A DNA stretch of 62,975 nucleotides, taken from contig DASUII010000297.1 in NCBI GenBank assembly GCA_036279835.1, positions 1 through 62,975 on the forward strand. Reading direction: 5' to 3'. A program made the translations under genes and the position numbers. The notes beneath the pieces were generated by a model. The model was given only the letters and a program-made list of their open reading frames with translations. It was not told the DNA's origin and searched no databases. This document shows, one piece after another, positions 3,186 through 31,330 of this stretch; within the stretch, counting starts at the first letter, position 1; the number at the start of each line of letters is the position of its first letter. The DNA is from Pseudonocardiaceae bacterium (GTDB taxonomy: Bacteria; Actinomycetota; Actinomycetes; Mycobacteriales; Pseudonocardiaceae).

Positions 3186-3422
3186 ATGGCCATCAATGTG
3201 ATTGACGCAGTGTGGGGATCCAAAGAGGGATCGATAGATGTTACCCCCATCGTGACTACCCTCACGAGCCCTCCCCTCAATATCTTCACTATCGCAGCCA
3301 ACAGCGCGACTCTCGGCGATCCCTCCCCAGGGATCCACAAACACCTCACCGTGAGGTATATGAATGTCGTCGGGGGCGTCATCCACACTGCCGCGTGCGA
3401 AGAGGTCAAGTCGCAACGTTGA
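3186..3422 (+). CDS. Small single-domain protein, DUF3395-like beta domain (I.A.WG..DVT...GDP.PG..K.L.V.Y pattern)
   Basis: An ATG at 3186 is preceded by GGAGAGAG. The 78-aa product MAINVIDAVWGSKEGSIDVTP...LGDPSPGIHKHLTVRY is a paralogue of the next ORF. GC is lower than in the surroundings. Confidence 0.55.
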   Translation: MAINVIDAVWGSKEGSIDVTPIVTTLTSPPLNIFTIAANSATLGDPSPGIHKHLTVRYMNVVGGVIHTAACEEVKSQR

Positions 3423-3451
3423 GCCAGTTGACGACTATATCGAGCATCAGC

Positions 3452-3676
3452 GTGATAGGAGCAGTCTATGGCGCCGAGCAGGGATCGGAAGACGTCACTA
3501 CGACTGTACAAGAACTCGTAGATAGCGGCGTTACCAAAATCACGGCAGATGACAACACCTTCGGAGATCCCGCTCCAGGGCACCTCAAGAACTTCGGCAT
3601 GCTTTATCTGCTACTGGGAGTACCCGGCGTCAAGGCCCTTTCTTGCCAGGAGGGGGAAACTGTCGAGATCACTTAG
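3452..3676 (+). CDS. Second small DUF3395-like domain protein (tandem paralogue); start uncertain
   Basis: An in-frame GTG at 3452 (alternative TTG at 3428) gives VIGAVYGAEQGSEDVTT...FGDPAPGHLKNFGMLY. This aligns along its whole length with the 3186-3422 product. It is in a different frame from the upstream gene. Confidence 0.5.
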   Translation: MIGAVYGAEQGSEDVTTTVQELVDSGVTKITADDNTFGDPAPGHLKNFGMLYLLLGVPGVKALSCQEGETVEIT

Positions 3677-3706
3677 GTCAGGCCGCTGAGTCTGCAGCCC
3701 TGAGCC

Positions 3707-5566
3707 TCAGGGGATGCGGCGTACCGCGCCCCTGTCGGCGCTGGTAGTCAGCGCCGCGTAAGCGCGCAGGGCCTTCGTCACCGGCCGGTCGCGGTTCCGC
3801 GGCTGCCATGGGCGTTCGTTGGCCTCCATCTTGGCGCGGCGCTCGGCCAGCACCTCGTCGGCGACCCGGAGCTCCAGCGTGCGGCTCGCGACGTCGAGGA
3901 CGACGGTGTCACCGTCCTCGATGAGTCCGATCACCCCGCCCGCGGCGGCCTCAGGGGAAATGTGCCCGACCGAGATGCCGCTCGACCCGCCGGAGAACCT
4001 GCCATCGGTGATCAGCGCGCAGACCTTGCCCAGCCCGGCGCCCTTGAGGAACGCGGTGGGGTGCAGCATCTCCTGCATCCCCGGTCCGCCGGCCGGCCCC
4101 TCGTAGCGGACGACGATGACGTCGCCGGGCTTGACCTTCTTGGTCAGGACGACGGAGACGGCCTCCTCCTGGCTCTCGACGACCAGTGCCGGGCCGGAGA
4201 AGTGCCACAGCTCCTCGGGGATGCCCGCGGTCTTGATCACCGCGCCGTCGGGAGCGATGTTGCCGCGCAATACCGCGAGCCCGCCGTCCTTGGTATACGC
4301 GTGCTCGACGTCGCGGATGCAGCCGCCTGCGACGTCAGTGTCGAGAGCTGACCAGCGGTTATGCGTGGAGAACGCCTCCGTGGTGCGCACCCCGCCGGGC
4401 GCGGCGTGGTACAGCTCAACGGCGATGTCCGACGGGCGTTCGGCGCGGACGTCCCACTCCGCGAGCCACGCCTGTAGCGACGGGGAATGTACGGTGTGCA
4501 CGCCGGTGTTCAGCAGCCCGGCGCGCCACAGCTCGCCGAGGATCGCGGGGATGCCACCGGCCCGGTGTACGTCCTCCATATGGTAGTCGGAGTTCGGTGC
4601 GACCTTCGCCAGGCACGGCACCCGGCGGGAGATCGCGTCGATCGCGGCCAGGTCGAAGTCGATCTCGCCCTCCTGCGCAGCGGCGAGGATGTGCAGCACG
4701 GTGTTGGTGGAGCCGCCCATCGTGACGTCGAGCGCCATAGCGTTCTCGAACGCCTCCCGGGTGGCGATCGAGCGCGGCAACACCGAGTCGTCACCCTCGC
4801 CGTAGAAGCGCGTGGCCAGCTCCATCACCGTGCGCCCGGCCTGCAGGAACAGCTCCCGGCGAGCCGCGTGCGTGGCCAGCGTCGAGCCGTTGCCGGGCAG
4901 CGCCAGCCCGAGCGCCTCGGTGAGGCAGTTCATTGAGTTGGCGGTGAACATGCCCGAACACGACCCGCAGGTCGGGCATGCCGCGCGCTCGACGACCTCG
5001 AGCGCATCGTCGTCGACCGCCGAGGACGCCGACGCCGCGATCGTGGTGATCAGGTCGCTGGACGGGTGCACGGTGTCGCCGACGACGACGGACTTGCCGG
5101 CCTCCATCGGGCCGCCGGAGACGAAGACGGTCGGGATGTTGAGCCGCATCGCGGCGTTGAGCATCCCCGGGGTGATCTTGTCGCAGTTCGAGATGCACAC
5201 CAGCGCGTCGGCGGCGTGGCCGTTGACCATGTACTCGACGGCGTCGGCAATCACCTCGCGTGAGGGCAGCGAGTAGAGCATGCCGCCGTGGCCCATGGCG
5301 ATGCCGTCATCGACGGCGATGGTGTGGAACTCCTTCGGCACGCCGCCGGCCTCACGAATCGTCGACGCCACCAGGTCGCCGAGGTCCTTGAGGTGCACGT
5401 GGCCGGGCACGAACTGGGTGTAAGAGTTAGCGATCGCGACGATCGGCTTGCCGAAGTCGTCGTCGGTCATCCCAGTGGCGCGCCAGAGCGACCGCGCTCC
5501 CGCCGCGTTGCGACCGTGGGTAGTGACGCGAGAACGCAGGTTCGGAAATGGGACCGGCACGGGCAC
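3707..5566 (-). CDS. ilvD: Dihydroxy-acid dehydratase
   Basis: 619 aa. [49 protein letters not shown] is near-identical in pattern to the enterobacterial IlvD N-terminus, and the length is right. Confidence 0.95.
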
Positions 5567-5726
5567 ACTCCAACCGGATCGGTGACGAGCTGGTCTCAGC
5601 CACGGTAGTCGTGGAAGCCGGTGTGTAACCCATCACGCACAGTACGACCGACAATCGGCGGCGAGCTGCCGTTGCCAGGTCACCAGCGCGACCGCCGCTC
5701 GCGAGGCCTTGTCGAGCCGGATGCTG

Positions 5727-6260
5727 CTAGCGCTTGTGCCCCAGGTAGATACTGTCGACCCTAGGATCCCGGTCATGATGAACGGTAAGAAGGTGCTTGA
5801 ATCCGAGGGTATCTAACAGTTGCAGGTGATGCCTGTTAGTAGACCGTGTGCGTAGAAGAATCCATGTAGGCAATGTCTCGGGAAGCCCTAAGAGCTTCTG
5901 GTATAGCAGGCGAGCATGTCCGCGTCCTCGCGCCGCGGGACGAACAGCAATGGTGCTGACGTAGATGCAGATTCCTATTTGCGGCAAGCGGTTGTCGCGG
6001 TGAAAGGTTCGGAAGGAAAGAAACCCTTGCAGTTGGTCGCACTCGATTAACAGTAGGCAATGTTGCATAAGCAATTCATCAAAGTAGCTACTCGATGCGC
6101 TGCCACTGGCACTTGCTAGTACTGCCTGGGTTGTGCTACTTCGAGTAGTTAGCGGTGGAACGAATTCGTCTGACACTTCTTCGACGAGTGACTCAAGGCT
6201 ACGTTGTTCTAACTGTGTCATCTTCCCGGGCATGCGCCACAGGATTTCGATAGTCATCAT
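5727..6260 (-). CDS. GNAT family N-acetyltransferase on a low-GC islet
   Basis: The acetyl-CoA binding motif IAVRPAARGRGHARLLY is present. The start at 6260 is preceded by GGGGAG. GC is about 50 percent by eye against a much higher flanking GC. Confidence 0.7.
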   Translation of the reverse strand: MMTIEILWRMPGKMTQLEQRSLESLVEEVSDEFVPPLTTRSSTTQAVLASASGSASSSYFDELLMQHCLLLIECDQLQGFLSFRTFHRDNRLPQIGICIYVSTIAVRPAARGRGHARLLYQKLLGLPETLPTWILLRTRSTNRHHLQLLDTLGFKHLLTVHHDRDPRVDSIYLGHKR

Positions 6261-6397
6261 CACTCCCCTACTCGGCTTCGATGGGGTGACTCGTGTGCAC
6301 TCGAACCAGGCGACGACGCATCGTCTCATCAGACCGGTCGGATCGCATCGGATCATCCACGGGCCGTGGCTCTCGCTCCTAGGACTAGCCTCAACGC

Positions 6398-6880
6398 ATG
6401 GGCACGATCAAACCGGGTGCAACACCGAACTGGCGCACCCAGGGCGTGCGGGTCATCCCCGGCGCCGCGCTGGACACCGACACTCCGCAGACACCGGGGA
6501 TGACCCGTGCCGCCGCGGTCACCCACGACCGGACGGGCTCGGAGAAGCTGTGGGCCGGAATCGCCACCATCTACCCCGGCGCGAAGACCGGGGCGCACCA
6601 TCACGGGGAGCTGGAAAGCGTGATCTACGTGATCCGCGGCCGGGCCCGGATGCGGTGGGGCGCCAACCTCGAATTCACCGCCGAAGCCGGCCCGGGCGGG
6701 TTCATCTTCGTGCCGCCGTTCGTGCCGCACCAAGAGATCAACGCCCTCAACGACAAGCCGCTGGAATGCGTGGTGACTCGCAGTGGACAGGAACCGATCG
6801 TGGTCAACCTCGACATCGACGGGGTGGCCGAGCCCGAACACGTGCCCTGGGTCGATCCAGCCCACACGGTGGTCCACTGA
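6398..6880 (+). CDS. Cupin domain protein
   Basis: 160 aa with GAHHHGELESVIYVIRG ... FVPPFVPHQE, typical cupin metal-binding motifs 1 and 2. Confidence 0.75.
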   Translation: MGTIKPGATPNWRTQGVRVIPGAALDTDTPQTPGMTRAAAVTHDRTGSEKLWAGIATIYPGAKTGAHHHGELESVIYVIRGRARMRWGANLEFTAEAGPGGFIFVPPFVPHQEINALNDKPLECVVTRSGQEPIVVNLDIDGVAEPEHVPWVDPAHTVVH

Positions 6881-7109
6881 ACACCGTCAGACAAAAGAGC
6901 TATTCCGGCAGAGGCGGCTATCCTCGGCGCCCGAGAGTACAGTTGATGTTGACGCTGACGCGGCGTACCAGAACGCGGATGCTGTGGGTCTGGGCCGCCA
7001 GCGGCGCAGCGGGTGATGTAGTAGCGGGTGGTTTGGCAGTTCCGCAGGCGGACCGTGGTCACCGCATGCTGCGAGGTGGTATGGGCGTTCCGGGTCGTGG
7101 AGTTGCTGG

Positions 7110-8555: not shown

Positions 8556-8760
8556 TCAGCTGCCATACCACCCAACCACAGTCCGGATTATGAGACGGTC
8601 AGAGCCGGAAGCACAGGGGCACTACCTGGACAAACAGCAACCACAAAGGCGCGGGCGTGGGCATGAGAGGCAGTATCAGACTACGGTTCATGCCCACCAA
8701 GTCCACAATGGACTCGGTCGACGACTAGTAGAGAGGTCGATCCGGGCTGATCATCCGAAC

Positions 8761-9300
8761 TTACCCGCGCCATCTGATCGGCGCACCCATCGGGGCCAAT
8801 CCAGTGCCGTCGCCAGATCCCTGTGGGTCATGACCTGCCGGACGGCGTTCAGGCGGCGGGATCGGTGCTGCGCAGCTGGATGGCGTTGCGGCGCCGGGTG
8901 ACCGCAAGCTGGCAGCTGGCTCCGGATTCCAGCGCAGCCCCACCGTCAGCTGCGTAGAGTCCACATCGGACGGTGTAATGGTGACGTCGGCGACGAGGGT
9001 GCGGAGCAGTCGCTTGCGATCCTTGTCGCTGGTGGTCTCGGTCGCCCACAACACCGGCAGGTCAGCCACCGTCGCGGCCAGCTACTCGGGGCTGGGCAGC
9101 TCGGGCTGGGTCTGGGATTGGGTGGCCAGGGCGGCATTGGCCGCGGCCAGCTCGGCCAGCGCGGTCTCCCATCGGGTCTCCAGGCTGCGCGGGTGGAAGA
9201 CCTGGCGGGTGCGGCGCCGGCCGAACAGGTTGCCGATGCGACGGCGGCGCGCACCAGTGTGGAGGTGGGCTATCTGCTCGATGAGTGGCTGGTCGGACAC
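8761..9300 (-). pseudogene. C-terminal remnant of a large serine recombinase (frameshifted, catalytic domain missing)
   Basis: Three minus-strand frames carry consecutive pieces: ...RSLETRWETALAELAAANAAL..., then ...DLPVLWATETTSDKDRKRLLRTLVADVTITP..TQLTVGLRW, then ..GASCQLAVTRRRN. This is the typical tail of actinobacterial large serine recombinases. There is no room for the N-terminal domain before the next gene. Confidence 0.6.
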
Positions 9301-9395
9301 CAGGTTGCGGAGACCACCCAGACGAGCTGCCGTTAGTGGCGATCGGGAAGTTCATCAAGCCTGCGGTCCGTGATACCTCGCTGACGAGGCTCCCC

Positions 9396-10658
9396 CTAGT
9401 GTCCGACGGCTCCATCGCGAAGGGCCGCTGGCGGTAGTCTGGTTCCCGCTGGGTCAGCGCGGTCGCGGAAAGCCGGGAAGGTGCGGCGTCCGCGTGCGAT
9501 CACCAGTGTGGGGCGTTGCAGCGCAGCGAGGTCGGCGAGGGGATCGCCGTCGACCACCAGCAGGTCGGCGCTGTAGCCGGCGTGCAGGGTGCCCGCTGTC
9601 GTGGCGAGCCCGAGGGCGTCCGCGGTCGTGACAGTGGCCATTTCGAGAATTTGCTCGCGGGTGAAACCCCAGTCTTCGAGGGCGCGGAGGGCGGCCGGGA
9701 AGGTGTCGAACGGAGCCATGCCGGCGTCGGTGCCGGTGATCAGGCGCACACCGCGATCGGCCATCCAGCGGACCCGGCCGATGATTTGCTGAGCACGTTG
9801 CGCACCATACTTGTTGGCGAAGGGGCGCCAGTTGTTGCTATTTGCGGGGCATACCGCGATGCCTGCGGTGACGAGATCGGCCACGGTCTGCTCATCGGGT
9901 TCGAAGACGCCGGGTCCGGTCAGCCAGGTGCAGTGCTCGATGGTGTCGACACCCGCATCGACACAGGTCCGGATGCTGCTGGTGCCGTGGGCGTGCGCGG
10001 CGACCGGTAGCCCGAGTCGCCGAGCCTCGTCGACTACGGTGCGCAACTGATCGGTGTGGAACTGCGGCTGCCACATCGCGGCCCCACCTGGGGTCATGCT
10101 TCCACCGGACACCATGACTTTGATCACGTCAGCCCCAGCGGCCGCATTACGTTGGATCTGCTCACGGATCTGGTCTGGACCATCGACCTCTCCGCCGAGG
10201 AACCAGCAGTGCCCACCTGGCGGAGTCAGCGGGGCGGTCGCGGCCAGGATGCGCGGCCCGGCCAGGTCACCAGCATTGATGGCCTCGCGCAGCTCCACCG
10301 TTAACCCGCCACGGTCGCCGAGGTCTCGCACAGTGGTAACCCCGCAGTGAAGTAGCTGTTGGGCTCGGCCGGCCATCGCCAGCGCCAAGCGCGCCGGATC
10401 GGCCGGAGCGATCAGGTTCTCCAGCCGATCCGGTCCCACATTGAAGGCCAGATGCACGTGAGCGTTGATCAGCCCCGGCAGGATCGTCGCTGACGGGAAC
10501 GCCAACTCCATGGTGTCCGCGCCGGCCGCCGCGCGGACCTCGTCCAGCAAACCGACGGCAACGATCGACTCGCCCTCGACCAGAACCGCGCCACCGTCGA
10601 CGCGCTGGCCGGCCGGACCGGTGAGAACCTGGGACGCAGACACTAGGTACCGCATCAC
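9396..10658 (-). CDS. Amidohydrolase family metallo-hydrolase
   Basis: 420 aa with LPGLINAHVHLAF (HxH metal motif) and later HAHG and DAG motifs, consistent with an imidazolonepropionase/aminoacylase-like fold. Confidence 0.85.
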   Translation of the reverse strand: MMRYLVSASQVLTGPAGQRVDGGAVLVEGESIVAVGLLDEVRAAAGADTMELAFPSATILPGLINAHVHLAFNVGPDRLENLIAPADPARLALAMAGRAQQLLHCGVTTVRDLGDRGGLTVELREAINAGDLAGPRILAATAPLTPPGGHCWFLGGEVDGPDQIREQIQRNAAAGADVIKVMVSGGSMTPGGAAMWQPQFHTDQLRTVVDEARRLGLPVAAHAHGTSSIRTCVDAGVDTIEHCTWLTGPGVFEPDEQTVADLVTAGIAVCPANSNNWRPFANKYGAQRAQQIIGRVRWMADRGVRLITGTDAGMAPFDTFPAALRALEDWGFTREQILEMATVTTADALGLATTAGTLHAGYSADLLVVDGDPLADLAALQRPTLVIARGRRTFPAFRDRADPAGTRLPPAALRDGAVGH

Positions 10659-10681
10659 TGGCTGCTCCTCCTAGTCGGGAA

Positions 10682-11830
10682 TCAGGCGCCGGAGCGCGCC
10701 GCCGAGCTGGGGGCGGGCCGGGCCAGGGCACACGAGAGAGCGAGCAGCTCCGCTACGTCAGCGTCGAGGTCAGACTCTCGCGGGCCGGCGAAGATGATCG
10801 GCACTCCGGTAGGCGCTAGCTCGTTGGCATGGGTTCGCAGGGCGCTCCGTAGCTGCTGCGCCCGCATCGCGGCGGTACTCGGTTTCCCACCGGCTACCTC
10901 AACCCGGGGTAGATAGGGGCTGATCCTGACCAGGCCATCCCGGCACTCGATGACGCGGCGGTAGTAGCGGCGATGCATGGAATAAAACGTCGTGACGTGC
11001 CTCCACCGGCTGGTGGGCACCCGGTGGAGGGCGTCCTCGGGAAAGGCCTGATACATCAGCCGCCACAACGGCTCTAGACCGCGGTAATCGTGCAGATGGC
11101 GCCACCACCGTCCGACGGCCCGGAACCGACCCACCAGTCCGGAATAAACGATCCCGATGGGGAAAGCGACGATCCCGGTGACCAGGACACCGTGGCCGAT
11201 GGCGAAGACGCCAGGCGAGAGCGGATGACCGACCCAATTGACGACGGTGGCGGTGGTGCGGAACAGCGGGCCACCGACGAGTTTCGCGGTCAGAGCAGCG
11301 GCGATGATCCACAATCCGTGCCGCAGCGGTGGCTCGGACAACCGCGAATAGCGCCACGCGGCGCGGAATTCCACGACCAGCGCATAACCGACATAGAGCG
11401 ACGGGATCAGGTAGAACACCCGGACTGGAACACTCGCCATGGTCACGCTGTAGAGCGCCCCACGCTCAGCCGGCGGTATGGCAAATCGCGCAGCGACCAA
11501 CGCAACGCACGCCCCGGCGCAGAGCGAGGCCTCTCGCCGAATGCGAGACCGCGGCGTGCCTGCGGCATCGAGGAAGAACCAGATCACCAGGAAGTGGAAG
11601 GTCATTACCGCGATGTTCTCCGGCACCTTCGATGCACCAGGGCCGACGGCGACGTTGATGGCGGCGGCCACCGAGTCCTGCCCGAGCAGGTACACCGACT
11701 CGGCGGCGCCGAGGGACGCGGTGACCAGCCAAAGACCGCGGTGCAGTGGTGCTCGGCGAAGCTGGTTGCCCGTCCACAGCAGGCCCGCGAACGCAGCGAA
11801 TGCCTGGAGGAGAGCCAGGTTCACAGCCAA
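10682..11830 (-). CDS. Polytopic membrane protein with conserved cytoplasmic C-terminal domain (MAB_1171c/DUF6545-like), module 1
   Basis: 382 aa with multiple hydrophobic helices, then WWRHLHDYRGLEPLW...HRRYYRRVIECRDGLVRISPY. It is a paralogue of 13880-15025. Its start overlaps the stop of the upstream peptidase gene by 10 nt. Confidence 0.7.
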   Translation of the reverse strand: MAVNLALLQAFAAFAGLLWTGNQLRRAPLHRGLWLVTASLGAAESVYLLGQDSVAAAINVAVGPGASKVPENIAVMTFHFLVIWFFLDAAGTPRSRIRREASLCAGACVALVAARFAIPPAERGALYSVTMASVPVRVFYLIPSLYVGYALVVEFRAAWRYSRLSEPPLRHGLWIIAAALTAKLVGGPLFRTTATVVNWVGHPLSPGVFAIGHGVLVTGIVAFPIGIVYSGLVGRFRAVGRWWRHLHDYRGLEPLWRLMYQAFPEDALHRVPTSRWRHVTTFYSMHRRYYRRVIECRDGLVRISPYLPRVEVAGGKPSTAAMRAQQLRSALRTHANELAPTGVPIIFAGPRESDLDADVAELLALSCALARPAPSSAARSGA

Positions 11831-12354
11831 CCCTGCCGATCGCCGAGTGCATCCTGGAGTCGCCGCACAGCCGGCTCAGCCGACGGTCGAGCGCTCACGT
11901 AGTCGAGCACCGACGCCCATTCCATGATGATCGTGGCGACTAACTCGGCTTCCTGCTCCTGCTCGGTGTCGTAGTGGGTCCGCCGCAACGCCCGTCGGAT
12001 CACCTCAAGAGACAGGTCTGGCATCATCTGCCGCCAGTACTCATCGTCAGTGTCGTCGCTGTGGTGATCTGCGAGTATATGACCGACTTCGTGCAAGATG
12101 ATGTGATCTTGGTGCACGCGGGTTGTCTCAGCCTGATAAAGAATGTAGTCAGTCGACCCGGTGGCCAGCCAGAGACCAAACGGCCCCGGTACCGGCAACG
12201 AGTAGCTCACCAGCCGGATCGGTCGGCCTCGACGTTTTCCCAGCCGCTGACACAGCAGGTCTACCCGCAAAGGCGGGTCGATGGCCAAGGCACGCAACTC
12301 ACGCCGGCAGCGGCGGCGAAGCTCCCGTTCCCGCACTGCTTCCCCCATCAGCAC
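11821..12354 (-). CDS. HExxH zinc-peptidase-like protein (ImmA/IrrE, COG2856-like), module 1
   Basis: 177 aa with a HEVGHILADHH motif. It lies immediately downstream of an XRE regulator and is a paralogue of 15022-15573. Confidence 0.7.
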   Translation of the reverse strand: MLMGEAVRERELRRRCRRELRALAIDPPLRVDLLCQRLGKRRGRPIRLVSYSLPVPGPFGLWLATGSTDYILYQAETTRVHQDHIILHEVGHILADHHSDDTDDEYWRQMMPDLSLEVIRRALRRTHYDTEQEQEAELVATIIMEWASVLDYVSARPSAEPAVRRLQDALGDRQGWL

Positions 12355-12420
12355 AATGACAGCTCATCAGCGTTAGCGTCTTATGTCCGGTGACGTCGTC
12401 GACCCGGTTTGGGTACGCGT

Positions 12421-12891
12421 TCACTCGTTCGAGCGTGATCCGCGCTCGGTTTGCTCCAGCTTGTAGATCACATCAAGCAGGTCCATGACTTGCTTGCGCC
12501 GTTCGTCGGAGAGCTCCCCGGCGCGCATCGCCATGACCCGCGCGTCTTCCCGGTCGGCGTTGACGGCCCGCCGCTGTCGCTCGGTCTCTAGGGCTGCCAG
12601 CTGGGTACTGACGCGGTCGGTCACCCTGTCGTCGAAGAAGTAAGCGGCCGGCACCCCGAAGAAGTTCGCCAACGCCTGCAGATGCTTCAGCGTCGGGTTG
12701 TCCTTCTTACCCTTGCGAAGCTGCCAGATGTAGCTCTGCGAGATCGTCACATCACTGGCGTCACGGATCGCTGACGCCACGTACTCGTTGCTGTACTCGC
12801 GCCCGTCTGGCTCAGTTACCCGCGTGAAGAGGCAGTTGAGCTTGTCCGCCAGACTCCGACCGTCTGGTTCAACATCGCAAATCCGGGCCAC
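12421..12891 (-). CDS. XRE family helix-turn-helix transcriptional regulator, module 1
   Basis: 156 aa. ISQSYIWQLRKGKKDNPTLKHLQALANFFGVPAAYFFD is a classic Cro/C1-type HTH. Confidence 0.85.
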   Translation of the reverse strand: MARICDVEPDGRSLADKLNCLFTRVTEPDGREYSNEYVASAIRDASDVTISQSYIWQLRKGKKDNPTLKHLQALANFFGVPAAYFFDDRVTDRVSTQLAALETERQRRAVNADREDARVMAMRAGELSDERRKQVMDLLDVIYKLEQTERGSRSNE

Positions 12892-13022
12892 ACCTCAGTC
12901 TAAACTCATGTGCGAGCAAACGCACGAGTGAATGTTACCTTGGTCGCAACCACGTCACCACCGCTGCGTGGTGCATGACGGCATCGTGTGGTACGCCGCC
13001 GCTGATGCCTGGGGAGGGCTCG

Positions 13023-13847
13023 ATGGATCCGATAGCAACGACAGGCCTGTACACCGCAATGATTCGGGCCCGGGAGTCCGCCCGCCCAGACCGCCTGTTC
13101 TCCGACCCCTTCTCCGAGGCACTGGCCGGGCCCCAGGGCGGCGACGTGCTCGCCTGGATGGAGGATCGTTGTCCAGGCGTTTCGGATCACCAAGTCATCC
13201 CGATCCGAACCAGGTTCTTCGACGGCACGCTTGAGCGCATCCTGGGTGAGTCCGGAGTGGATCAGCTCGTAGTCCTCGCGGCCGGAATGGACACCAGGGC
13301 GCTCCGGCTGCCGCTGCGACCCGATCTTGCCCTGTTCGAACTCGACCGGCCCGAGGTGCTGGACCTCAAGGCCGCTCGCCTGGCGCAGTGCAACGCGGTA
13401 CCCCACTGCCGGCGGATCCCGATCCCGGTCGACCTCGGTGGGGACTGGTCCGCGGCACTGCTGGGTGGTGGCTTCGATCGGCAGCGGCCGGCGGTCTGGC
13501 TCGTCGAAGGCCTGCTGCACTACTTGACCAATGATCAGGTTCATCGCGTGCTGGGCACCCTAAGCAGGCTGGCGGTCACCGGAAGCTGGTTGCTCACCGA
13601 CGTGGTCGGCCACTCGTTCCTGACCTCGCCGCACGTGGCCGCCTTCCTGGCAATGATGGCCGCGAACGGCTCTCCCTTCCGCTTCGGCACAGACCAGCCG
13701 GAAGACCTCATGCGGCTGCACGGCTGGCGGCCGCAGGTGACCCAGTTCGGCGAGGACGGGGCCGACTTCGGCCGGTGGACCATGCCCGTGCCCGACCGCG
13801 AGGATCCACACTCGCCCCACGGCTACTTACTCGTCGCCGATCGCTGA
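13023..13847 (+). CDS. Class I SAM-dependent methyltransferase (TIGR00027-type putative O-methyltransferase)
   Basis: YTAMIRARES..DRLFSDPF.., VVLAAGMDTRALRL, ELDRPEVLDLK and WLVEGLLHYL are present. The ATG at 13023 is preceded by GGGGAGGG. Confidence 0.85.
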   Translation: MDPIATTGLYTAMIRARESARPDRLFSDPFSEALAGPQGGDVLAWMEDRCPGVSDHQVIPIRTRFFDGTLERILGESGVDQLVVLAAGMDTRALRLPLRPDLALFELDRPEVLDLKAARLAQCNAVPHCRRIPIPVDLGGDWSAALLGGGFDRQRPAVWLVEGLLHYLTNDQVHRVLGTLSRLAVTGSWLLTDVVGHSFLTSPHVAAFLAMMAANGSPFRFGTDQPEDLMRLHGWRPQVTQFGEDGADFGRWTMPVPDREDPHSPHGYLLVADR

Positions 13848-13879
13848 CCCGCTGGCCGCACAGCCAGTGGTACCCCCGA

Positions 13880-15025
13880 TCACGCCTTGCGCGCGGTGGT
13901 GTGCAGCACTCGCGAGAGCGCCACGAGCTCGTCAACGTCAGCATTCAAGCCTGCCGCGGTCGGCACCGCGACGGGCGTGGCATCTGGTGGCGCGGGCTCG
14001 CCTGCGGCATGGGCCCGCAAAGCGTCTTTGAGTAGGTGAACCAGCGAGTCATCTTTGCGACCGTTCTGCCGCAGCTGCGCTACGTGCGGACTGATGCGGA
14101 CCAAACCGTCACGGCACTCAATGACTCGCCGGTAGTAGCGGCGGTGCACTCCCCGCAGACTGACTGCGTCGCGCCAGGGGCTGCTGGGGACGCGGGTCAA
14201 CTCGTGCTCGGGAAACTCCCCGTGCAGCGCTGTCCAGAGCGGACCGAGATACTGGTAGATCCGGCGGTGACGCCACCAGACTCGCAGCGCTGCTAGCCGC
14301 AGGACCGCGGCCGGATAGCTGAGACCGGTGAGGAATAACAGGACGCCAGGTAGGAGTAGGACGATCCCGGTCACGAGAACCGGATGCGGCATCGTGCCAT
14401 GAGCCCAACGAACGATATTCGCCGCCACGAACGAGACGTTGGCTACCACAATCGCGGTCAGACCCACCGACGCCAGCAGTAAACCCCGGCGCAATCGCGG
14501 TTCTGCTCTTCGTGCATGGCGCCGGGTCAACACCCACGCCGCCACGAACGCAAACAGCAGGTACGAGTTCGCGGTCGTGTAGAACAGGCCGATACTGGGC
14601 ACGCCAACGGGTCCCTGGTGTTCCTCAGCGGGCAACACAGCGGCCGCGGTGCGGAGAGCAGCGGGCATGATCGCGTCCGCGATCGTCAATACCACCACGG
14701 CGGAACTCAGCGGAAGGGCATGCCACCAGGCGCGGGTCCGGGCACTGCGGGTGTCGAATGCGGAAAACAAGAAGAAGCAGATCAGGCTGTACGCTCCGAC
14801 CAACAATAGCGCGTGTTGAACCAACCGCGACGCCATGGGCTCAAGGCCGAGGAAGTCAACACCCCTGGTGGCCATAATTCCGAAGGGATACGCTATAGCC
14901 CAACAGGTGACTAGGCCGGTGATTGCCCGCAGCCGCACGTCTCGCGGTTTGCGCGCCAGAAGGTACAGCATCAACAGCAGCACAGCGGCGGCTGCGAGAC
15001 CCTGCGCTACCTGCAGTCCGGTCAC
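13880..15025 (-). CDS. Polytopic membrane protein (MAB_1171c/DUF6545-like), module 2 paralogue
   Basis: 381 aa with the same architecture and C-terminal signature HRRYYRRVIECRDGLVRISPH. There is a 4-nt start/stop overlap with the upstream peptidase gene. Confidence 0.7.
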   Translation of the reverse strand: MTGLQVAQGLAAAAVLLLMLYLLARKPRDVRLRAITGLVTCWAIAYPFGIMATRGVDFLGLEPMASRLVQHALLLVGAYSLICFFLFSAFDTRSARTRAWWHALPLSSAVVVLTIADAIMPAALRTAAAVLPAEEHQGPVGVPSIGLFYTTANSYLLFAFVAAWVLTRRHARRAEPRLRRGLLLASVGLTAIVVANVSFVAANIVRWAHGTMPHPVLVTGIVLLLPGVLLFLTGLSYPAAVLRLAALRVWWRHRRIYQYLGPLWTALHGEFPEHELTRVPSSPWRDAVSLRGVHRRYYRRVIECRDGLVRISPHVAQLRQNGRKDDSLVHLLKDALRAHAAGEPAPPDATPVAVPTAAGLNADVDELVALSRVLHTTARKA

Positions 15026-15573
15026 AGCCAGCCTAGCCGATCATTCAACGACATGCCTATGCGCTGTGCCGTGGTGTCCGTCGAGGACTGCGGTGCAACA
15101 TAGTCGAGAACTGAAGCCCATTCCAAGATAATCGTGGCTACGGTCTCCGCCTCACGTTCCTGCGCGGTGTCGTAGCAGGTACGTTGCAGCGCCCGACGAA
15201 CGGCATCGGTTGCCAGGTCAGGATACCGATTGCGCACGGCATTGGGCTCTGTGTCCGGGTACAACTGAGCGAACAGATCGTCGTCTTGCTCGTCGCTGCT
15301 ATGCCCAGCGAGAATGTGGCCCAGTTCGTGCAGAACGATGTGCGCCTGGTGCGACGTGGTGGTCTCTTGTTGGTAGACGATGTAATCTGCTTGGGCAGTG
15401 GCGATCCATACGCCGAACGGCCCGGGTACGGGGATCGGGTGGGGAAGCAAACGAATGGATCGGCCACGTTGCTTCGCGACCCGCCGGCACAACTCAGCGA
15501 CATCCAGTGGAGGGTGGATGTCCAGTTCATTCAGCATCGCCCGACACCACCGGCGCAGCTCTCGTTCCCTCAT
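15022..15573 (-). CDS. HExxH zinc-peptidase-like protein (ImmA/IrrE-like), module 2 paralogue
   Basis: 183 aa with a HELGHILAGH motif. By eye it is roughly half identical to 11821-12354 over the full length (ATIILEWASVLDYV versus ATIIMEWASVLDYV). Confidence 0.7.
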   Translation of the reverse strand: MRERELRRWCRAMLNELDIHPPLDVAELCRRVAKQRGRSIRLLPHPIPVPGPFGVWIATAQADYIVYQQETTTSHQAHIVLHELGHILAGHSSDEQDDDLFAQLYPDTEPNAVRNRYPDLATDAVRRALQRTCYDTAQEREAETVATIILEWASVLDYVAPQSSTDTTAQRIGMSLNDRLGWL

Positions 15574-15660
15574 TCGCCATCCTCCCCTTAGGTAGGCCTC
15601 TCCACAGCATCACAGACGCTGCTGTCACTTTCCTGGATTTATCGACGTAGCGAGCCCCGT

Positions 15661-15975
15661 TCACTCGTTCGGGAAATAATCCAGTGTGACGGTTGCACTC
15701 AGTGCGCAACGTTGAGCAGCTACTGGACCAGATGGAACCGTCCCTCCCTGTGGCAGTCCCGCTGCACCTCGGGTCGCACACTGGTCGCGTACCCGAGGAG
15801 GGGCGGCAGGCTGGGGAGCTCGCCTCGGTCGACTGTCACCGATTGTTCTGGCGACGTGCTCGTTGCTGAACTCGTGCCCAGTCCGCGGCTTCACGGCCGC
15901 GACCAGGTAGTTCAGTGCACTGCCAGGCTCCGGCCGATCCGCTCGACGACGCCGCTGACCCCTCGCCCCTGAGAT
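15661..15975 (-). pseudogene. Decayed XRE regulator of module 2 (start codon lost, HTH region deleted)
   Basis: My own translation gives ..ADRPEPGSALNYLVAAVKPRTGHEFSNEHVARTIGDS, which aligns to VEPDGRSLADKLNCLFTRVTEPDGREYSNEYVASAIRDAS of 12421-12891. No ATG, GTG or TTG sits at the equivalent start. The HTH block is absent, and a GELP.. segment resembling the module-1 C-terminal GELS region follows in another frame. The last codons (..NE-stop, tcactcgttcg on the plus strand) are shared with the module 1 gene. Confidence 0.6.
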
Positions 15976-16282
15976 TTTCCACCAACGTAGAAGTCTAACA
16001 TGTCACTCGTTGTACAACAGTTGATATATCTGCCGGCCAGGCTTAGACTGCCGCCTTGGATGATTTCGACTGACGTGTACCACTGCTTCTGGATCCATGG
16101 ACTCAGGTGAAGTTGATCGGGTTCGATCGTCGACTGGGCCCAGAGACGAGCTAGTTGGTGCTCCGATCGGGGGAGGGGGTATCGCACGAAGGTGGCTCTG
16201 GAGCGAGCGACGGTTCGTGGCGCGGAAGCCATCGTGAAGATCTCTTGCTCGGTCGGTGACGACAAAGTTATGTTGAGGCGGG

Positions 16283-17329
16283 ATGCCCATGACAACTTCG
16301 GTCGAGACTTCTCATGCGGAAGGCTCGAAAGACGACGCTTGGCCAGCAAAGGCACTGTTGTGGGACCAACGTGAGCCGGTTGCCGGGATGAGGGTGCCGA
16401 CCTGCTCGTTGTTTCCCTCAGATTCTCCGAGACTGTCTGGCGAGGACGTGGAACATTCCCGTGCGCTCGCCGAGTCGGGAGCAACATTCCCGGCGATTAT
16501 TGTGAATCGCGTTACCATGTGCGTCATCGACGGGATGCACCGATTACGTGCGGCCGCACTTCGCGGCCAGCGTGATATCGACGTGCAGTTCTTTGACGGC
16601 GATGGACATGATGCATTCGTGCTCGCCGTCAAGGCGAACATCGCTCACGGGTTGCCGCTGTCGCTGGCCGACCGCACCGCCGCGGCGGCACGTATCATCA
16701 GTTCACACCCGCAATGGTCTAACCGGGTAATCGCATCAACGGTGGGTCTTTCTCCCAAGACGATAGGTGCGATACGTCGTCGTTCAACTGAGGACGATCC
16801 TCAGTTGAACGCCAGGATCGGTCGCGACGGGAGGATCCGTCCGCTCAACACAGCCGAAGGACGTAGGATCGCCGGCGAACTGATGGAGAACCGGCCGGAT
16901 GCTCCTCTTCGGGAGATTGCCCGCGCGGCTGGGATCTCCCTGGGAACTGCGCAGGATGTGCGTGAGCGACTTCGCCAGGGCAAGCATCCAATTCCCCGGA
17001 AGCGGCATCATGGGAAACGGCAACAAAGTCAACTGGGGGGCGACCAACCCGAAAGTCAGCAGAGTAGCGTGTTCGCCACGGGCACACCTATCAGCGTATC
17101 GATCCTGAACGACCTGAAAAAAGATCCTTCGCTGCGTTTTTCTCATGCGGGACGCGCGCTGCTTCGCCTGCTGCACGTCCTCGCCCTTGGTAGAAGCGAT
17201 TGGGAACAGTTGATCGACAGCGTTCCGGTGCACTGCGTGCCCATGGTTTCCCAAGCGGCCCGCGCCTGTGCGGCCGCGTGGCAGGAATTCGCAGAACACC
17301 TTGACGGACATGCTCGGCGTAAGGGGTGA
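16283..17329 (+). CDS. StrR-like pathway regulator (ParB-like nuclease domain + HTH)
   Basis: SLFPSDSPRLSGEDVEHSRALAES...IIVNRVTMCVIDGMHRLRAAALRG matches the StrR/KasT/NovG-type N-terminus. The start may instead be the internal ATG at 16388. It contains an in-frame TTA codon at 16544-16546. Confidence 0.85.
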   Translation: MPMTTSVETSHAEGSKDDAWPAKALLWDQREPVAGMRVPTCSLFPSDSPRLSGEDVEHSRALAESGATFPAIIVNRVTMCVIDGMHRLRAAALRGQRDIDVQFFDGDGHDAFVLAVKANIAHGLPLSLADRTAAAARIISSHPQWSNRVIASTVGLSPKTIGAIRRRSTEDDPQLNARIGRDGRIRPLNTAEGRRIAGELMENRPDAPLREIARAAGISLGTAQDVRERLRQGKHPIPRKRHHGKRQQSQLGGDQPESQQSSVFATGTPISVSILNDLKKDPSLRFSHAGRALLRLLHVLALGRSDWEQLIDSVPVHCVPMVSQAARACAAAWQEFAEHLDGHARRKG

Positions 17330-17335
17330 GATGAT

Positions 17336-17920
17336 GTGCGTGCTGTGAGGGATGGCGCGACAGGTGGGACCGAACTCCGCAGCGCTACGTTCCGCGTCGT
17401 GATGGGTTTCTTTCCTACCGGTGTCGCGCTGCTCACGTGTGGATCCGGCGGTGATACCGACGTCATCACCGCAAACGCGGTTACTTCGATCTCGTTGGAA
17501 CCTCCGCTAGTCCTCGTCGCGGTAACCTCCCGGGGTCGGATTCGGCGCAGTATCGAGAGGCAGAGGAGTTTCGCGGTCAACTTCCTGGCGGAGGATCAGG
17601 GCGGGTTGGCTAGTTTGTTCAGCAAATGGAACCGTCCCAGGGGCGTCGCGGCCATTAAGATCCTCGGTGGCGAGGTAAGTCGCACTGGTGATGCCCTTCT
17701 CGCGAGGGCGGTCGCAGGCCTGGAGTGCACGTTGGTGCGGAAGTGCCCGGGCGGCGACCACATCATGTTTATTGGGCAGGTGATCGCTACCTACACCGAC
17801 GACGAGATAGAACGGCGGCCGCTGCTGTTCCACCGAGGTAGGTATTCGACTGTCGCCTCGTGCGGCTGCGGCATACCCGTTACCGGCTTAGTGCAGAGCC
17901 TGCCAGAGCGTGTCGACTAG
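17336..17920 (+). CDS. NAD(P)H:flavin oxidoreductase (flavin reductase family)
   Basis: 194 aa. FRVVMGFFPTGVALLT...ANAVTSISLEPPLVLVAV...FAVNFLAEDQ is typical of the flavin reductase domain. Confidence 0.85.
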   Translation: MRAVRDGATGGTELRSATFRVVMGFFPTGVALLTCGSGGDTDVITANAVTSISLEPPLVLVAVTSRGRIRRSIERQRSFAVNFLAEDQGGLASLFSKWNRPRGVAAIKILGGEVSRTGDALLARAVAGLECTLVRKCPGGDHIMFIGQVIATYTDDEIERRPLLFHRGRYSTVASCGCGIPVTGLVQSLPERVD

Positions 17921-17952
17921 GGATTCATCTGACTGGGATCGGAGACACGGCC

Positions 17953-27327: not shown

Positions 27328-28304
27328 GCCGCGTCCTCCTCACTGCTGGCGTCGCCCTCGACCTTGTGCCCGGTCAGGGCCAGGAAGACCTCGTCAAGGC
27401 TAGGTTGGCCGAGCGCGAACTCGCTGGTCTCAAGGCCCAGTTGGGACAGCACGCCCAGCGCACGGGTGGCCCGATCGGTGTCGGAGACCCGCGCTGACAG
27501 TGCGACCGGATCGGACTCCAGATGCACCGGCACACCGAGCTCGTGGGCGAGGACCCGCTCAGCTTCGGGCCGTTTCTCGGGATCACGCAGCCGGACGCTC
27601 AACACGCCCGAGCCGATCGACGACTTCAGCTCTCCGGTAGTCCCCTCCGCGATGACCGTTCCGTGCTCGATGACCGCGATGCGGTCGGCAAGCTGATCGG
27701 CCTCGTCGAGGTACTGGGTGGTCAACAGCACGGTGGTGCCCGTTTCGACGAGTGCCCTGACGATCCCCCAGACCTGGTTGCGGCTGTTCGGGTCAAGGCC
27801 GGTGGTCGGCTCGTCGAGGAACAGCAGTTCGGGTGTGACGACGATGCTCGCGGCGATGTCCAACCGGCGGCGCATGCCACCGGAGAACGTCTTCACCAGC
27901 CGATGCCCGGCTTCAGCCAGGCCGAAAGTGCCGAGCAGCTCGCTCGCCCGGTCCTTCGCCTGCCGCCACGAGTATCCCTGTAACCTGCCCATCATGATCA
28001 GGTTCTCCACCCCGGACAGCCCCTCATCGACTGAGGCGAACTGCCCAGTGAGGCTGATCCGGCGCCGAACCGCGTCGGCCTCGCGCACCACGTCGTGACC
28101 GTAGACGCAGGCGGTGCCGCCGTCCGGGCGTAACAGCGTGGCCAGCATGCGGATGATCGTGGTCTTGCCGGCGCCGTTCGGGCCGAGGACGCCATAGACC
28201 ACACCCGCCGGCACGGCAAGGTCGACGCCGTCCACCGCTTTCGTCGTGCCGAAGGCCTTGACCAAGCTCGACGTCTCTATCGCCAAAGTGGGGTGCGACT
28301 TCAC
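27324..28304 (-). CDS. ABC transporter ATP-binding protein, daunorubicin-resistance DrrA family
   Basis: Walker [10 protein letters not shown], signature FSGGMRRRL and Walker [13 protein letters not shown] are present, with the DrrA-type C-terminal extension. Confidence 0.9.
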
Positions 28305-28455
28305 AACCAGCTCCTAGCTATGTCCACCGAGTCAGTACGGCGCGGTCGCCTTCCTTCACAGCGGACCACGGTATCTCCGATTCAGGTCAGTTCCTGGCCG
28401 CGATTGCGGCGACGTTGTCTCTTTGGCGGGAACGAGCTGCCGCGCCCACCGCGTC

Positions 28456-28484
28456 TCGAGCCGATCTCGTCGAGTCTTCAAGTC
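28456..28484 (+). promoter_or_regulatory. Three TC-initiated heptamers at 11-nt phasing (TCGAGCC / TCGTCGA / TCAAGTC), candidate SARP site upstream of the monooxygenase gene
   Basis: Read directly. The heptamers start at 28456, 28467 and 28478, about 75 nt upstream of the proposed GTG start at 28559. Confidence 0.4.
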
Positions 28485-28558
28485 CAGCCAACGAGGCTGG
28501 GCGCCGGCGTGGCGTCCGCGTTGAACCCGACCGGAGCGAAACGATTCGAGGAGCAGGG

Positions 28559-30160: not shown

Positions 30161-31154
30161 CCGCAGCGCCGGTCTCGTCACCGGTCACGATCGTCGTGTC
30201 ATGGCCTGTCGAGCGAGAGAGTCGCTCCGCCAGGCCGCGAACGTAGTCGATGAGCTCAGGGGGCTCGTGAATCTCGAACTCGATGTCGAACATGCCGATG
30301 GTCAGGGCAAGCCACTGCAACGAATCGGCTGCGGTGCGCAGCCGGCAGGTCTGGTCGTCGACGGACTCCAGCACGCCGTCGGTGGGCCGTATCCGCTCCG
30401 CGATCACCTCGACCGGTGCGTGCAGGGTCACTAGTGCGCGGTAGCGGGCGAGCGAGGAAGTGATCGCCTGCGCAACGTAGGCGGCTGCATCGGCGGCAGG
30501 CAGTTCCCGTGGCTTGAACCGGAGCCCGGTCGCCAGCGGGGACTTCAAACGGTCAACGCGGAAGGTCCGCCAGTCCCCCCGGTCCAGATCCCACGCCATC
30601 AGGTACCACTTCCTGATGACATACACCAGACGGTACGGCTCGACGATCCGGTTGCTTCCGATTCCGTCACGCTTGCAGTACGAGAATCGCAGCCGCTCGT
30701 GATCCCGGCACGCCTGAGCGATCACGGCGAGGTGACCCGGGTCCACGAGGGGCCCGGACGCGATAAACGGCACCGTGTAGGTCTGCACGGCGTTCACTCG
30801 GCGGCGCAAGTGGCCCGGTAGGAGCTGCTCCAGTTTGGCCAGCGCGCGGACCGACGTCTCCTCGATTCCGGCCACCGTGCCACCCACCGCCGTGCGGAGC
30901 CCGATGGCTATCGCGACGGCTTCCTCGTCGTCGAGCAGAAGGGGCGGCAGGGCGGCTCCCGCCTCGAGCCGGTAGCCGCCCCTGACCCCCGAGATCGCCC
31001 GTACCGGATAGCCGAGCTCACGCAGGCGATCGATGTCGCGGCGCAGGGTCCGGGGACTCACGTCGAGCCGCTCGGCGAGCGTCGGACCCGACCAGTCCCG
31101 GCAATTCTGCAACAGCGACAGCAGACGCAGCATGCGCGACGACGTATCAGCCAT
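30138..31154 (-). CDS. HTH + WYL domain transcriptional regulator (YafY-like)
   Basis: MLRLLSLLQNCRDWSGPTLAERLDVSPRTLRRDIDRLRELGYPV is the N-terminal HTH. The central WYL-like segment is ..IRKWYLMAWDLDRGDWRTFRVDR. Confidence 0.85.
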   Translation of the reverse strand: MADTSSRMLRLLSLLQNCRDWSGPTLAERLDVSPRTLRRDIDRLRELGYPVRAISGVRGGYRLEAGAALPPLLLDDEEAVAIAIGLRTAVGGTVAGIEETSVRALAKLEQLLPGHLRRRVNAVQTYTVPFIASGPLVDPGHLAVIAQACRDHERLRFSYCKRDGIGSNRIVEPYRLVYVIRKWYLMAWDLDRGDWRTFRVDRLKSPLATGLRFKPRELPAADAAAYVAQAITSSLARYRALVTLHAPVEVIAERIRPTDGVLESVDDQTCRLRTAADSLQWLALTIGMFDIEFEIHEPPELIDYVRGLAERLSRSTGHDTTIVTGDETGAAVNEPARG

Positions 31155-31330
31155 GGTTCCTAGGATGCCCTCAACCGCGGTCAGAACTTGACCTAATTGA
31201 GGCTAGCGTCCCAGGACCAGTGATCAAGGTCGTGCGGAGAACCCAGGATGAGGCCGCCCCAAGTCGGGCTCAAGCCAAAGCCATGATGCTCGCATTTGCC
31301 CTTCCCCCCGGAAACACCGAGAGGTCAACG

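Follow-up and report, generated by a model that had tools for sequence, protein, structure and literature searches.

A cassette of three genes was analysed in two copies that adjoin each other in the DNA of a Pseudonocardiaceae bacterium (GenBank assembly GCA_036279835.1, contig DASUII010000297.1, positions 1 to 62,975; this whole stretch of 62,975 nucleotides (nt) is referred to as the window). The genes encode a Cro/C1-type repressor (XRE), a small protein with an HExxH motif (PEP) and a seven-transmembrane (7TM) protein with a cytoplasmic DUF6545 domain (MEM). The cassette is real, conserved and far from a chance association, and is best filed as a switch of a repressor and an ImmA-type protease, with an obligate 7TM-DUF6545 partner and an enzyme as cargo. 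The preferred reading of its function, held with slightly less than even confidence, is that a signal sensed at the membrane activates PEP, that PEP cleaves XRE and that the cargo enzyme is then induced. This would be the logic of ImmR/ImmA with a BlaR1/BlaI-like purpose.

Gene Content of Copy 1

An earlier note on this DNA, made from the sequence alone, had described an operon of a repressor, an HExxH protein and a membrane protein on the minus strand (12891-10682). The analysis confirmed these three intact, co-oriented genes, as well as the SAM methyltransferase gene that had been placed between the two copies on the opposite strand. The features of copy 1 are the following:

12421..12891, minus strand: XRE1, Cro/C1-type helix-turn-helix (HTH) repressor, 156 amino acids (aa), intact
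11821..12354, minus strand: PEP1, putative minimal IrrE/ImmA/CapP-like zinc peptidase domain with HEVGH, 171-177 aa according to the start chosen
10682..11824, minus strand: MEM1, 7TM protein with cytoplasmic helical DUF6545 domain, 380 aa, GTG start
9396..10658, minus strand: AMI, amidohydrolase of the prolidase/carboxypeptidase-like branch, 420 aa, fourth gene of the copy-1 operon
12892..13022, no strand assigned: divergent intergenic region upstream of XRE1, with TAGACT 5 nt before the GTG start
12975-13847, plus strand: TIGR00027/LCM-type S-adenosylmethionine (SAM) methyltransferase, between copies 1 and 2

PEP is joined to MEM by a GTGA stop/start overlap of 4 nt in both copies of the window. 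The 4-nt overlap noted previously for copy 2 is therefore correct, but the 10 nt given for copy 1 are an artefact of taking TTG 11830 as the start. MEM1 begins at GTG 11824, as in its homologues (VNL...; P0001 = 380 aa). Among annotated relatives, the two genes overlap by up to 10 nt or are separated by up to 9 nt.

Copy 1 is a four-gene unit, since AMI, which the earlier note did not include, starts 23 nt past the MEM1 stop behind an AGGAGG Shine-Dalgarno sequence, and the same gene is found in relatives. In detail, an amidohydrolase occupies this position after MEM in loci L001-L003, L006, L086, L094 and others. AMI contains the full domain of the Amidohydrolase superfamily (PF01979, 153 bits against a cut-off of 25, E = 1.6e-44). 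Its closest NCBIfam entry is the Xaa-Pro dipeptidase NF051886 (248 bits, under the cut-off of 500 for that family). AMI is presumed to be the regulated cargo of the copy-1 operon.

Linkage and Distribution of the Cassette

Gene neighborhoods were examined in 80 metagenome loci retrieved with a PEP profile, of which those with enough flanking sequence were eligible. Wider loci came from metagenome, plasmid and encoding-contig look-ups, and a scan of genome contigs with a single sequence gave one locus. In 48 of the 52 eligible metagenome loci (92%), the gene immediately downstream of PEP is MEM, and the pairing of PEP with MEM is near-obligate. The XRE family of the cassette lies directly upstream of PEP in 37/61 loci (61%), and in part of the remaining ones an XRE gene is located after MEM or convergent to it. 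Pairwise distances co-vary between PEP and MEM (r = 0.82) and between PEP and XRE (r = 0.72), with 0 of 2000 permutations reaching either value; the three genes are thus passed on together and diverge together. The triad seen in the window by the earlier note thus co-occurs beyond chance.

The MEM profile retrieved 1,880 clusters at 50% identity (E <= 0.001), nearly all of them with 370-400 aa. Named carriers belong to Streptomyces, Kitasatospora, Amycolatopsis, Actinophytocola, Pseudonocardia, Nocardia, Tsukamurella and Mycobacteroides. A relative of PEP is present on 116 plasmid records and in one Mycobacteroides abscessus prophage (two records), and the gene order of the cassette is kept on plasmids of Streptomyces, Tsukamurella and Saccharopolyspora and in this prophage. 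The organism carrying window positions 9396-16300, by its best hits probably a Pseudonocardiaceae-like actinomycete, is widespread: the segment recurs near-verbatim (0.88-1.00 of the sampled 31-mers) in at least 13 soil or wetland metagenome runs from eight studies. Among the longer MEM homologues, no informative Rosetta-stone fusion was found, as they contain no additional Pfam domain.

Some loci depart from the common arrangement. In L095 (8001-9217) and L096 (1915-3095), a close PEP2 relative is preceded by an intact XRE, but the gene after it encodes a protein of 186 aa that matches no Pfam family and may be a truncated form of, or a replacement for, the MEM partner of ~380 aa. In L091 (Mycobacterium phage Adler, M. 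abscessus prophage; 3474-7087), an XRE, a PEP-like protein and a 406-aa membrane protein precede a cytochrome P450 as cargo, and the cassette genes overlap by 4-8 nt. In L089 (S. clavuligerus megaplasmid; 3356-5661), the usual place of XRE is taken by a precursor gene of a ribosomally synthesized and post-translationally modified peptide (RiPP) of the LxmA-leader family, and the genes immediately downstream encode a "ParH-like" PEP and a MAB_1171c protein.

The Enzyme Cargo

The flanking cargo is varied but enzymatic. Among 41 co-directional open reading frames (ORFs) directly after MEM, classified by Pfam family, 16/41 are Amidohydrolase, 4/41 FAD_binding_3 monooxygenase and 2/41 P450, whereas PIG-L deacetylase, NUDIX and Glyoxalase/bleomycin-resistance proteins account for 1/41 each. 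In annotated examples, cargo genes overlap the MEM stop. Loci without an upstream XRE often have an FAD monooxygenase, an AMP-binding enzyme, an alpha/beta-hydrolase or a TetR gene upstream instead. The variable enzyme cargo, together with the co-transcribed amidohydrolase, is the best clue to the purpose of the cassette.

The Repressor and Its Candidate Control Sites

XRE1 exceeds the gathering threshold of HTH_3 (PF01381, residues 50-85; 25.2 bits against a cut-off of 23, E = 1.6e-5). The protein consists of a conserved N-terminal segment, an HTH at ~45-86, a conserved AYFFDD motif and a likewise conserved C-terminal helix. Its transcript may be leaderless, because TAGACT is located 5 nt upstream of the GTG.

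In several other loci (L017, L020, L026, L029, L033, L069, L077, L081 and others), a conserved sigma-70-like promoter, TTGAnn-17-TA(A/G)nnT, is found ~60-140 nt before XRE. An inverted repeat, AGTTGA ... TCAACT, with arms ~46 nt apart, brackets this promoter and is a candidate operator pair of the XRE family. An operator common to both copies of the window was sought and not found, the boxes being absent before XRE1 and degenerate before the remnant of the second XRE gene.

The Small HExxH Protein

The motif HE[VIL]GH is found in 117/120 homologues of PEP, and the HExxH of Peptidase_M78/ImmA-IrrE proteins appears as HEVGH in PEP1 and HELGH in PEP2. Residues H88, E89, H92, E133 and E137 are invariant in 42 diverse members, including the "ParH-like" subfamily. 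Identity within the family reaches 60-90% across genera.

The AlphaFold2 (AF2) model of PEP1 (predicted local distance difference test, pLDDT, 72.6) shows five helices and a three-stranded sheet. The same elements make up the peptidase domain of CapP, in which two His and a Glu further downstream bind the zinc, and their order in the model is that described for the CapP/IrrE peptidase domain (bioRxiv 10.1101/2022.04.27.489752). E133 and E137 of PEP1 are placed on helix 131-150, 41-45 residues past H92, compared with 29 residues past the second His for Glu129 of CapP. The best Foldseek matches are CapP (7t5t), PprI (8slm) and IrrE (3dte), with probabilities of 0.89-0.98, and the IrrE-like domain of Mycobacterium tuberculosis PrpR. 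In the wider PEP family, 9/42 members match PF06114 at E <= 0.01 (best 4.4e-5).

PEP is a single-domain protein of 171-183 aa, versus 240-280 aa in CapP and IrrE, and is devoid of their linker and GAF domains. From signals that are weak though convergent, drawn from sequence and model, PEP would be a minimal peptidase domain of the IrrE/ImmA/CapP type without a sensor domain. Of the zinc peptidase assignment made in the earlier note, the HExxH is borne out, but the threshold of PF06114 is reached by neither PEP1 nor PEP2.

The Membrane Protein

Both MEM proteins are clear members of the DUF6545/MAB_1171c family, to which the earlier note had pointed. MEM1 and MEM2 score 256.4 and 266.7 bits, respectively, with NF042915 (MAB_1171c family; cut-off 100), and their C-terminal parts match PF20182 (DUF6545) with E = 1.3e-25 and 3e-22. 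The AF2 model of MEM1 (pLDDT 89.5) shows seven membrane helices and, after them, a cytoplasmic domain that is likewise helical. Counts of Lys and Arg indicate an N-out/C-in topology with short outer loops.

Conservation is unevenly distributed along MEM. The membrane part averages 37% identity, and the DUF6545 core with the HRRYYRRVIECRDGLV helix 68%. MEM has an invariant helix, HRRYYRRVIECRDG. The HRRYYRRVIECRDGLVRISP motif is identical in both copies and largely invariant among 30 family members, which confirms the strongly conserved cytoplasmic tail reported previously. The fold matches of MEM are weak and refer to 7TM receptors only, and MEM2 shows a sub-threshold match to HisKA_7TM (PF16927, E = 1.2e-5). 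With its variable input and conserved output, MEM resembles a receptor more than a transporter, as far as sequence and model indicate.

NCBI names the family "MAB_1171c family putative transporter", and MEM could accordingly transport the substrate or product of the adjacent enzyme, with PEP as an accessory or processing protein and XRE as an ordinary local regulator. This is considered quite unlikely. The adjacent enzymes would need access to their substrates, and the M. abscessus mutant of this family was placed in one group with transport mutants whose drug susceptibility is altered (PMC8707978). However, the name is only a prediction, which the present findings do not support, and MEM matches no transporter family in Pfam or NCBIfam. 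The model is a single 7TM bundle without an internal repeat, and the best-conserved part is not the membrane part but the cytoplasmic helical domain of 140 aa. Transport would also leave the near-obligate translational coupling to an HExxH protein unexplained. The mutant in question, a transposon insertion in MAB_1171c, has lower minimal inhibitory concentrations of clarithromycin and cefoxitin and about half the biofilm (PMC8707978). As weak evidence for the preferred reading, this phenotype is compatible with a role in drug response.

A different partner for PEP is also conceivable. Its substrate could be MEM or another protein instead of XRE, or PEP could be a nonproteolytic anti-repressor, sequestered by DUF6545 and freed on a signal. 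The linkage of PEP to MEM is tighter than that to XRE (92% vs 61% of eligible loci), and PEP-MEM pairs persist without XRE, as in copy 2. Furthermore, an acidic loop of PEP (SDDTDDE; residues 98-106 in PEP1) is electrostatically complementary to the basic invariant helix of MEM (HRRYYRR). On the contrary, the invariant HExxH and Glu argue for catalysis, the adjacent XRE-type repressor is the substrate in every characterised relative (ImmA, IrrE, CapP), and XRE co-diverges with PEP. A substrate other than XRE, or a nonproteolytic PEP, is thus judged improbable.

Finally, the cassette could be a toxin-antitoxin-like or phage-defence module, in which XRE is the antitoxin or repressor, PEP a protease activated by stress or DNA damage, and MEM an effector that damages the membrane once derepressed. 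COG2856-Xre pairs, that is, an Xre with a HExxH protease of ~160 aa, have been predicted to form three-component, toxin-antitoxin-like systems with a postulated, unknown third component (Makarova et al. 2009, PMC2701414). XRE1 matches capH of PADLOC (E = 5.5e-10) and PEP2 weakly capP (E = 0.0015, profile positions 3-83 of 242), some homologues are annotated with the label "toxin", and the cassette occurs on plasmids, in the M. abscessus prophage and in multiple divergent copies. However, neither MEM nor PEP1 has a match in PADLOC or PHROGs, and a relative is found in only two phage records and two IMG/VR contigs. The neighbors are catabolic or modifying enzymes; no defence genes were found among them, and the genes downstream of copy 1 gave no PADLOC match. 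The third components discussed for the COG2856-Xre systems are RelE/PIN toxins and not 7TM proteins. MEM does not resemble small pore-forming toxins either, being a large and well-folded 7TM protein whose cytoplasmic domain is conserved. MEM2 has also remained intact after the loss of its repressor (see below), a state that a cell would not survive if MEM were a toxin. A toxin or defence module is therefore quite unlikely.

The Second Copy and Its Decayed Repressor Gene

The features of copy 2 are the following:

15022..15573, minus strand: PEP2, paralogous minimal peptidase (putative) with HELGH, 183 aa, carrying a 12-aa insertion that characterises its clade
13880..15025, minus strand: MEM2, paralogous 7TM-DUF6545 protein, 381 aa, 4-nt GTGA overlap with PEP2
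15835..15945, minus strand: XRE remnant of copy 2 (pseudogene), profile positions 11-47 only, without the HTH
16018..16050, minus strand: degenerate promoter/operator region of copy 2, by comparison with L017/L020/L026/L081 (putative function)

PEP2 and MEM2 are intact and keep all residues that are invariant in their families. On the contrary, the second Cro/C1-type repressor, which had been assigned a start at 15975, does not exist as a gene. There is no ATG, GTG or TTG at 15975 in the proposed frame, and tblastn with XRE1 gave no match upstream of PEP2. A hidden Markov model of the XRE family recognises 37 codons at ~15945-15835 (profile positions 11-47), from which the HTH is absent. In blastn comparisons with the XRE genes of its relatives, copy 2 shows similarity over the first ~90-115 nt only. 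The 278 nt that follow, as far as PEP2, show no similarity to any XRE gene, and the relatives have ~80 nt more at this place. The sole ORF of this region (15894-15661) has a G+C content at third codon positions (GC3) of 0.54, versus 0.68-0.82 in real genes. A second XRE gene in intact form is excluded by these results. An artefact of assembly or a frameshift error was also ruled out: the remnant has the same sequence, without indels, in contigs of four independent soil metagenome assemblies, and therefore the decay is real.

The putative promoter of copy 2 has degenerated as well. Compared with the AGTTGA / TTGAnn-17-TAnnnT / TCAACT arrangement of its relatives, the -10 element reads TAAGCC and the left arm AGTCGA, while the TCAACTG box is kept. 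MEM2 has no cargo enzyme downstream, and the next gene, the methyltransferase at 12975-13847, is convergent. With its repressor gene decayed, copy 2 is an orphan pair of putative sensor and putative peptidase that may be idle, may be in the course of being lost, or may work on XRE1 or another repressor.

The two copies are old paralogous lineages that happen to adjoin. PEP1 and PEP2 are 55% identical, and MEM1 and MEM2 37%. On other contigs, PEP1 has relatives with 87-90% identity, PEP2 is 72-74% identical to L017/L020/L026/P0238, and MEM2 is 56-60% identical to cassettes on other contigs; the cassettes related to copy 2 have an intact XRE. The closest relatives of copy 1 among metagenome-assembled genomes and contigs (L001, L094) have no second copy nearby. 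Each copy is nearer to cassettes elsewhere than to the other one, and thus a recent local tandem duplication is ruled out. Of the "tandemly duplicated triad" of the earlier note, two paralogous copies remain, but not the local duplication, and not a triad in copy 2.

Positions 14001-18000 of the window have a G+C content of 0.60-0.63, compared with 0.65-0.69 elsewhere. The lowest GC3 values (0.54-0.68) belong to PEP2, to a ParB/HTH gene and to the XRE remnant. The segment could be horizontally acquired or decaying DNA.

Copy 2 abuts a gene cluster for a deoxy-aminosugar natural product. As a special case of the switch proposed above, the cassette, and copy 2 in particular, could be a cluster-situated regulator that responds to the cluster's own product, or to an intermediate, by tuning biosynthesis or self-resistance. 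The sister subfamily, ~40% identical to PEP1, is called "ParH-like protein" by NCBI, and the S. clavuligerus pair adjoins a RiPP precursor gene. NeoI/NeoH/NeoG of the neomycin cluster, for which such a role has been suggested, and ParI/ParH/ParG of the paromomycin cluster may be the same triad; with aphA, a drug-modifying enzyme, behind it, this would be the very architecture proposed for the cassette. In the neomycin cluster, neoGH-aphA has been described as a regulatory operon (PMC10991966), and the literature searched gave no further support for a link to NeoI/H/G or ParH. Most cassette loci, however, lie outside obvious biosynthetic clusters, and in copy 2 the repressor is lost and the promoter degenerate. 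A role as a cluster-situated regulator is regarded as unlikely.

The Proposed Switch and Its Closest Relatives

The preferred reading, induction of an enzyme by a signal at the membrane through cleavage of the repressor, would operate in copy 1 as follows. XRE1 would repress its own operon, XRE1-PEP1-MEM1-amidohydrolase. PEP would be a bare catalytic domain made in stoichiometric coupling with MEM. The variable 7TM bundle of MEM would perceive the signal, probably a lipophilic or membrane-active small molecule, while its conserved cytoplasmic DUF6545 domain would hold or control PEP. On the signal, PEP would cleave XRE and the operon would be derepressed. The cargo enzyme would then act on the compound, here as a peptide or amide hydrolase and elsewhere as an FAD monooxygenase, a P450 or an alpha/beta-hydrolase.

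The closest known systems are ImmR/ImmA (ICEBs1, phage phi105), DdrO/IrrE (Deinococcus) and CapH/CapP (CBASS and other defence operons), which, as is predicted for the cassette, have an XRE-type repressor gene beside an HExxH peptidase of the IrrE/M78 fold. The resemblance includes the match of XRE1 to the capH model. In all three, the peptidase cleaves the repressor and the adjacent operon is derepressed. There are several differences. CapP combines the peptidase with an HTH-like linker and, at its C terminus, a GAF domain, and IrrE and CapP are regulated through such linker or GAF domains, which PEP lacks. None of these systems has a 7TM-DUF6545 protein, whereas PEP is translationally coupled to one. 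They regulate genes of DNA repair, excision or immunity, but the cargo of the cassette consists of small-molecule enzymes, and nothing links the cassette to DNA damage. For instance, CapH/CapP is located upstream of an anti-phage immune operon, and in the window MEM and an amidohydrolase are found downstream.

BlaI/BlaR1-BlaZ and MecI/MecR1 offer a functional analogy: a membrane sensor, an HExxH protease and a cleaved repressor lead to the induction of the sensor genes and of a drug-modifying hydrolase. However, BlaR1 unites an M56 membrane protease and an extracellular penicillin-binding domain in a single protein, whereas the putative sensor and protease of the cassette are two proteins. PEP has no transmembrane segment, and MEM has neither HExxH nor a large external domain, only short external loops. 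BlaI is a winged-helix protein, unlike the XRE of the cassette. Homology to BlaR1/MecR1 was not detected, as there is no M56 match and BlaR1 ranks 23rd in Foldseek (E = 1.7).

Several observations weigh against the preferred switch. For the peptidase, the Foldseek E-values of PEP1 are weak (0.03-0.3, TM-score ~0.41). PF06114 is unmatched by PEP1 and reached by PEP2 with 17.9 bits only (cut-off 22, E = 0.0028); PEP1 has no Pfam, NCBIfam or PADLOC match, and PEP2 likewise has none in NCBIfam. Profiles of the PEP family, narrow and wider, run against the PDB sequences retrieved no IrrE, CapP or ImmA, and gave only fragilysin-like HExxH matches at chance level. For the sensor, the external loops of MEM are short and contain no recognisable ligand-binding domain, and the MAB_1171c phenotype, which may be polar, was seen in a transposon screen that included no complementation (PMC8707978). 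For the repressor, a motif scan of 12892-13022 did not find the AGTTGA/TCAACT boxes of other clades upstream of XRE1. A PEP-MEM pair can exist without XRE, because ~40% of the eligible loci, as well as copy 2, have no XRE of the cassette family directly upstream of PEP. The cargo is missing in copy 2 and at some loci.

The ImmR/ImmA-like logic with a membrane input, suggested by the earlier note, is nevertheless retained as the favoured interpretation, which we infer with a peptidase assignment that rests on weak convergent signals. The statement that the triad is experimentally uncharacterised was not overturned; the literature found consists of the MAB_1171c transposon-mutant phenotype (PMC8707978).

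A more specific form of the preferred switch, possible though doubtful, is that PEP and MEM constitute an unrecognised two-protein receptor. In this form, a 7TM protein similar to G protein-coupled receptors would gate a bare ImmA-type protease through DUF6545, so that a lipophilic ligand leads to proteolysis of the repressor. Gating might occur, for example, by release of an autoinhibitory acidic/His loop of PEP. The fast-evolving 7TM part would set the ligand specificity of each paralogue, and the adjacent enzyme would provide the matched detoxifying or modifying activity.

To our knowledge, the characterised repressor-cleaving proteases of the ImmA/IrrE/CapP type all answer cytoplasmic cues, namely RecA, RapI or single-stranded DNA. 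If the proposed switch is true, the seven-helix partner would extend it to signals at or in the membrane. DUF6545/MAB_1171c, now labelled "putative transporter", would gain a function that is spread over Streptomyces, Pseudonocardiales, Mycobacteriales, plasmids and a prophage. If, more specifically, PEP and MEM form the two-protein receptor, the cassettes, with 1,880 MEM clusters, would be a large, unexplored reservoir of inducible units for sensing and inactivating antibiotics or xenobiotics in Actinobacteria, with cluster-situated ones such as NeoI/H/G-AphA among them. The cassettes may mark inducible drug-modifying enzymes and their cognate sensors, which would be of use in resistance surveillance, ligand finding and the design of orthogonal switches for actinomycete engineering.

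Neighboring Genes in the Window

On the side of copy 1, between a DUF2252 gene and the amidohydrolase, a gap of 840 bp (8556-9395) contains no convincing gene. A serine-recombinase remnant was considered at 8761-9300 (minus-strand ORFs 8761-9069 and 9082-9300) and rejected, since Pfam gave no match.

The natural-product gene cluster is located at 16283-30157, directly beside copy 2. Its regulators are a ParB_N/HTH protein (StrR-like) and a Streptomyces antibiotic regulatory protein (SARP) with a BTAD domain. The enzymes include a flavin reductase, a DegT/DnrJ aminotransferase, a nucleoside diphosphate (NDP)-sugar epimerase/dehydratase and a flavoenzyme resembling acyl-CoA dehydrogenases. The cluster further contains a sugar C-methyltransferase (Methyltransf_14), a BBE-like FAD oxidase, an ABC-2 transporter pair and an FAD aromatic hydroxylase. 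This gene content suggests a glycosylated product with a modified amino sugar. The ORF of the DegT aminotransferase, listed at 18369-19892, overlaps the 3′ half of the SARP gene (17860-18945), and its real start is probably much later, near 18950. Beside the gene of the FAD hydroxylase, a regulator with the HTH_11-WYL-WCX arrangement is encoded on the minus strand (30141-31202), which is the architecture of the CapW/BrxR-type repressors that sense single-stranded DNA.

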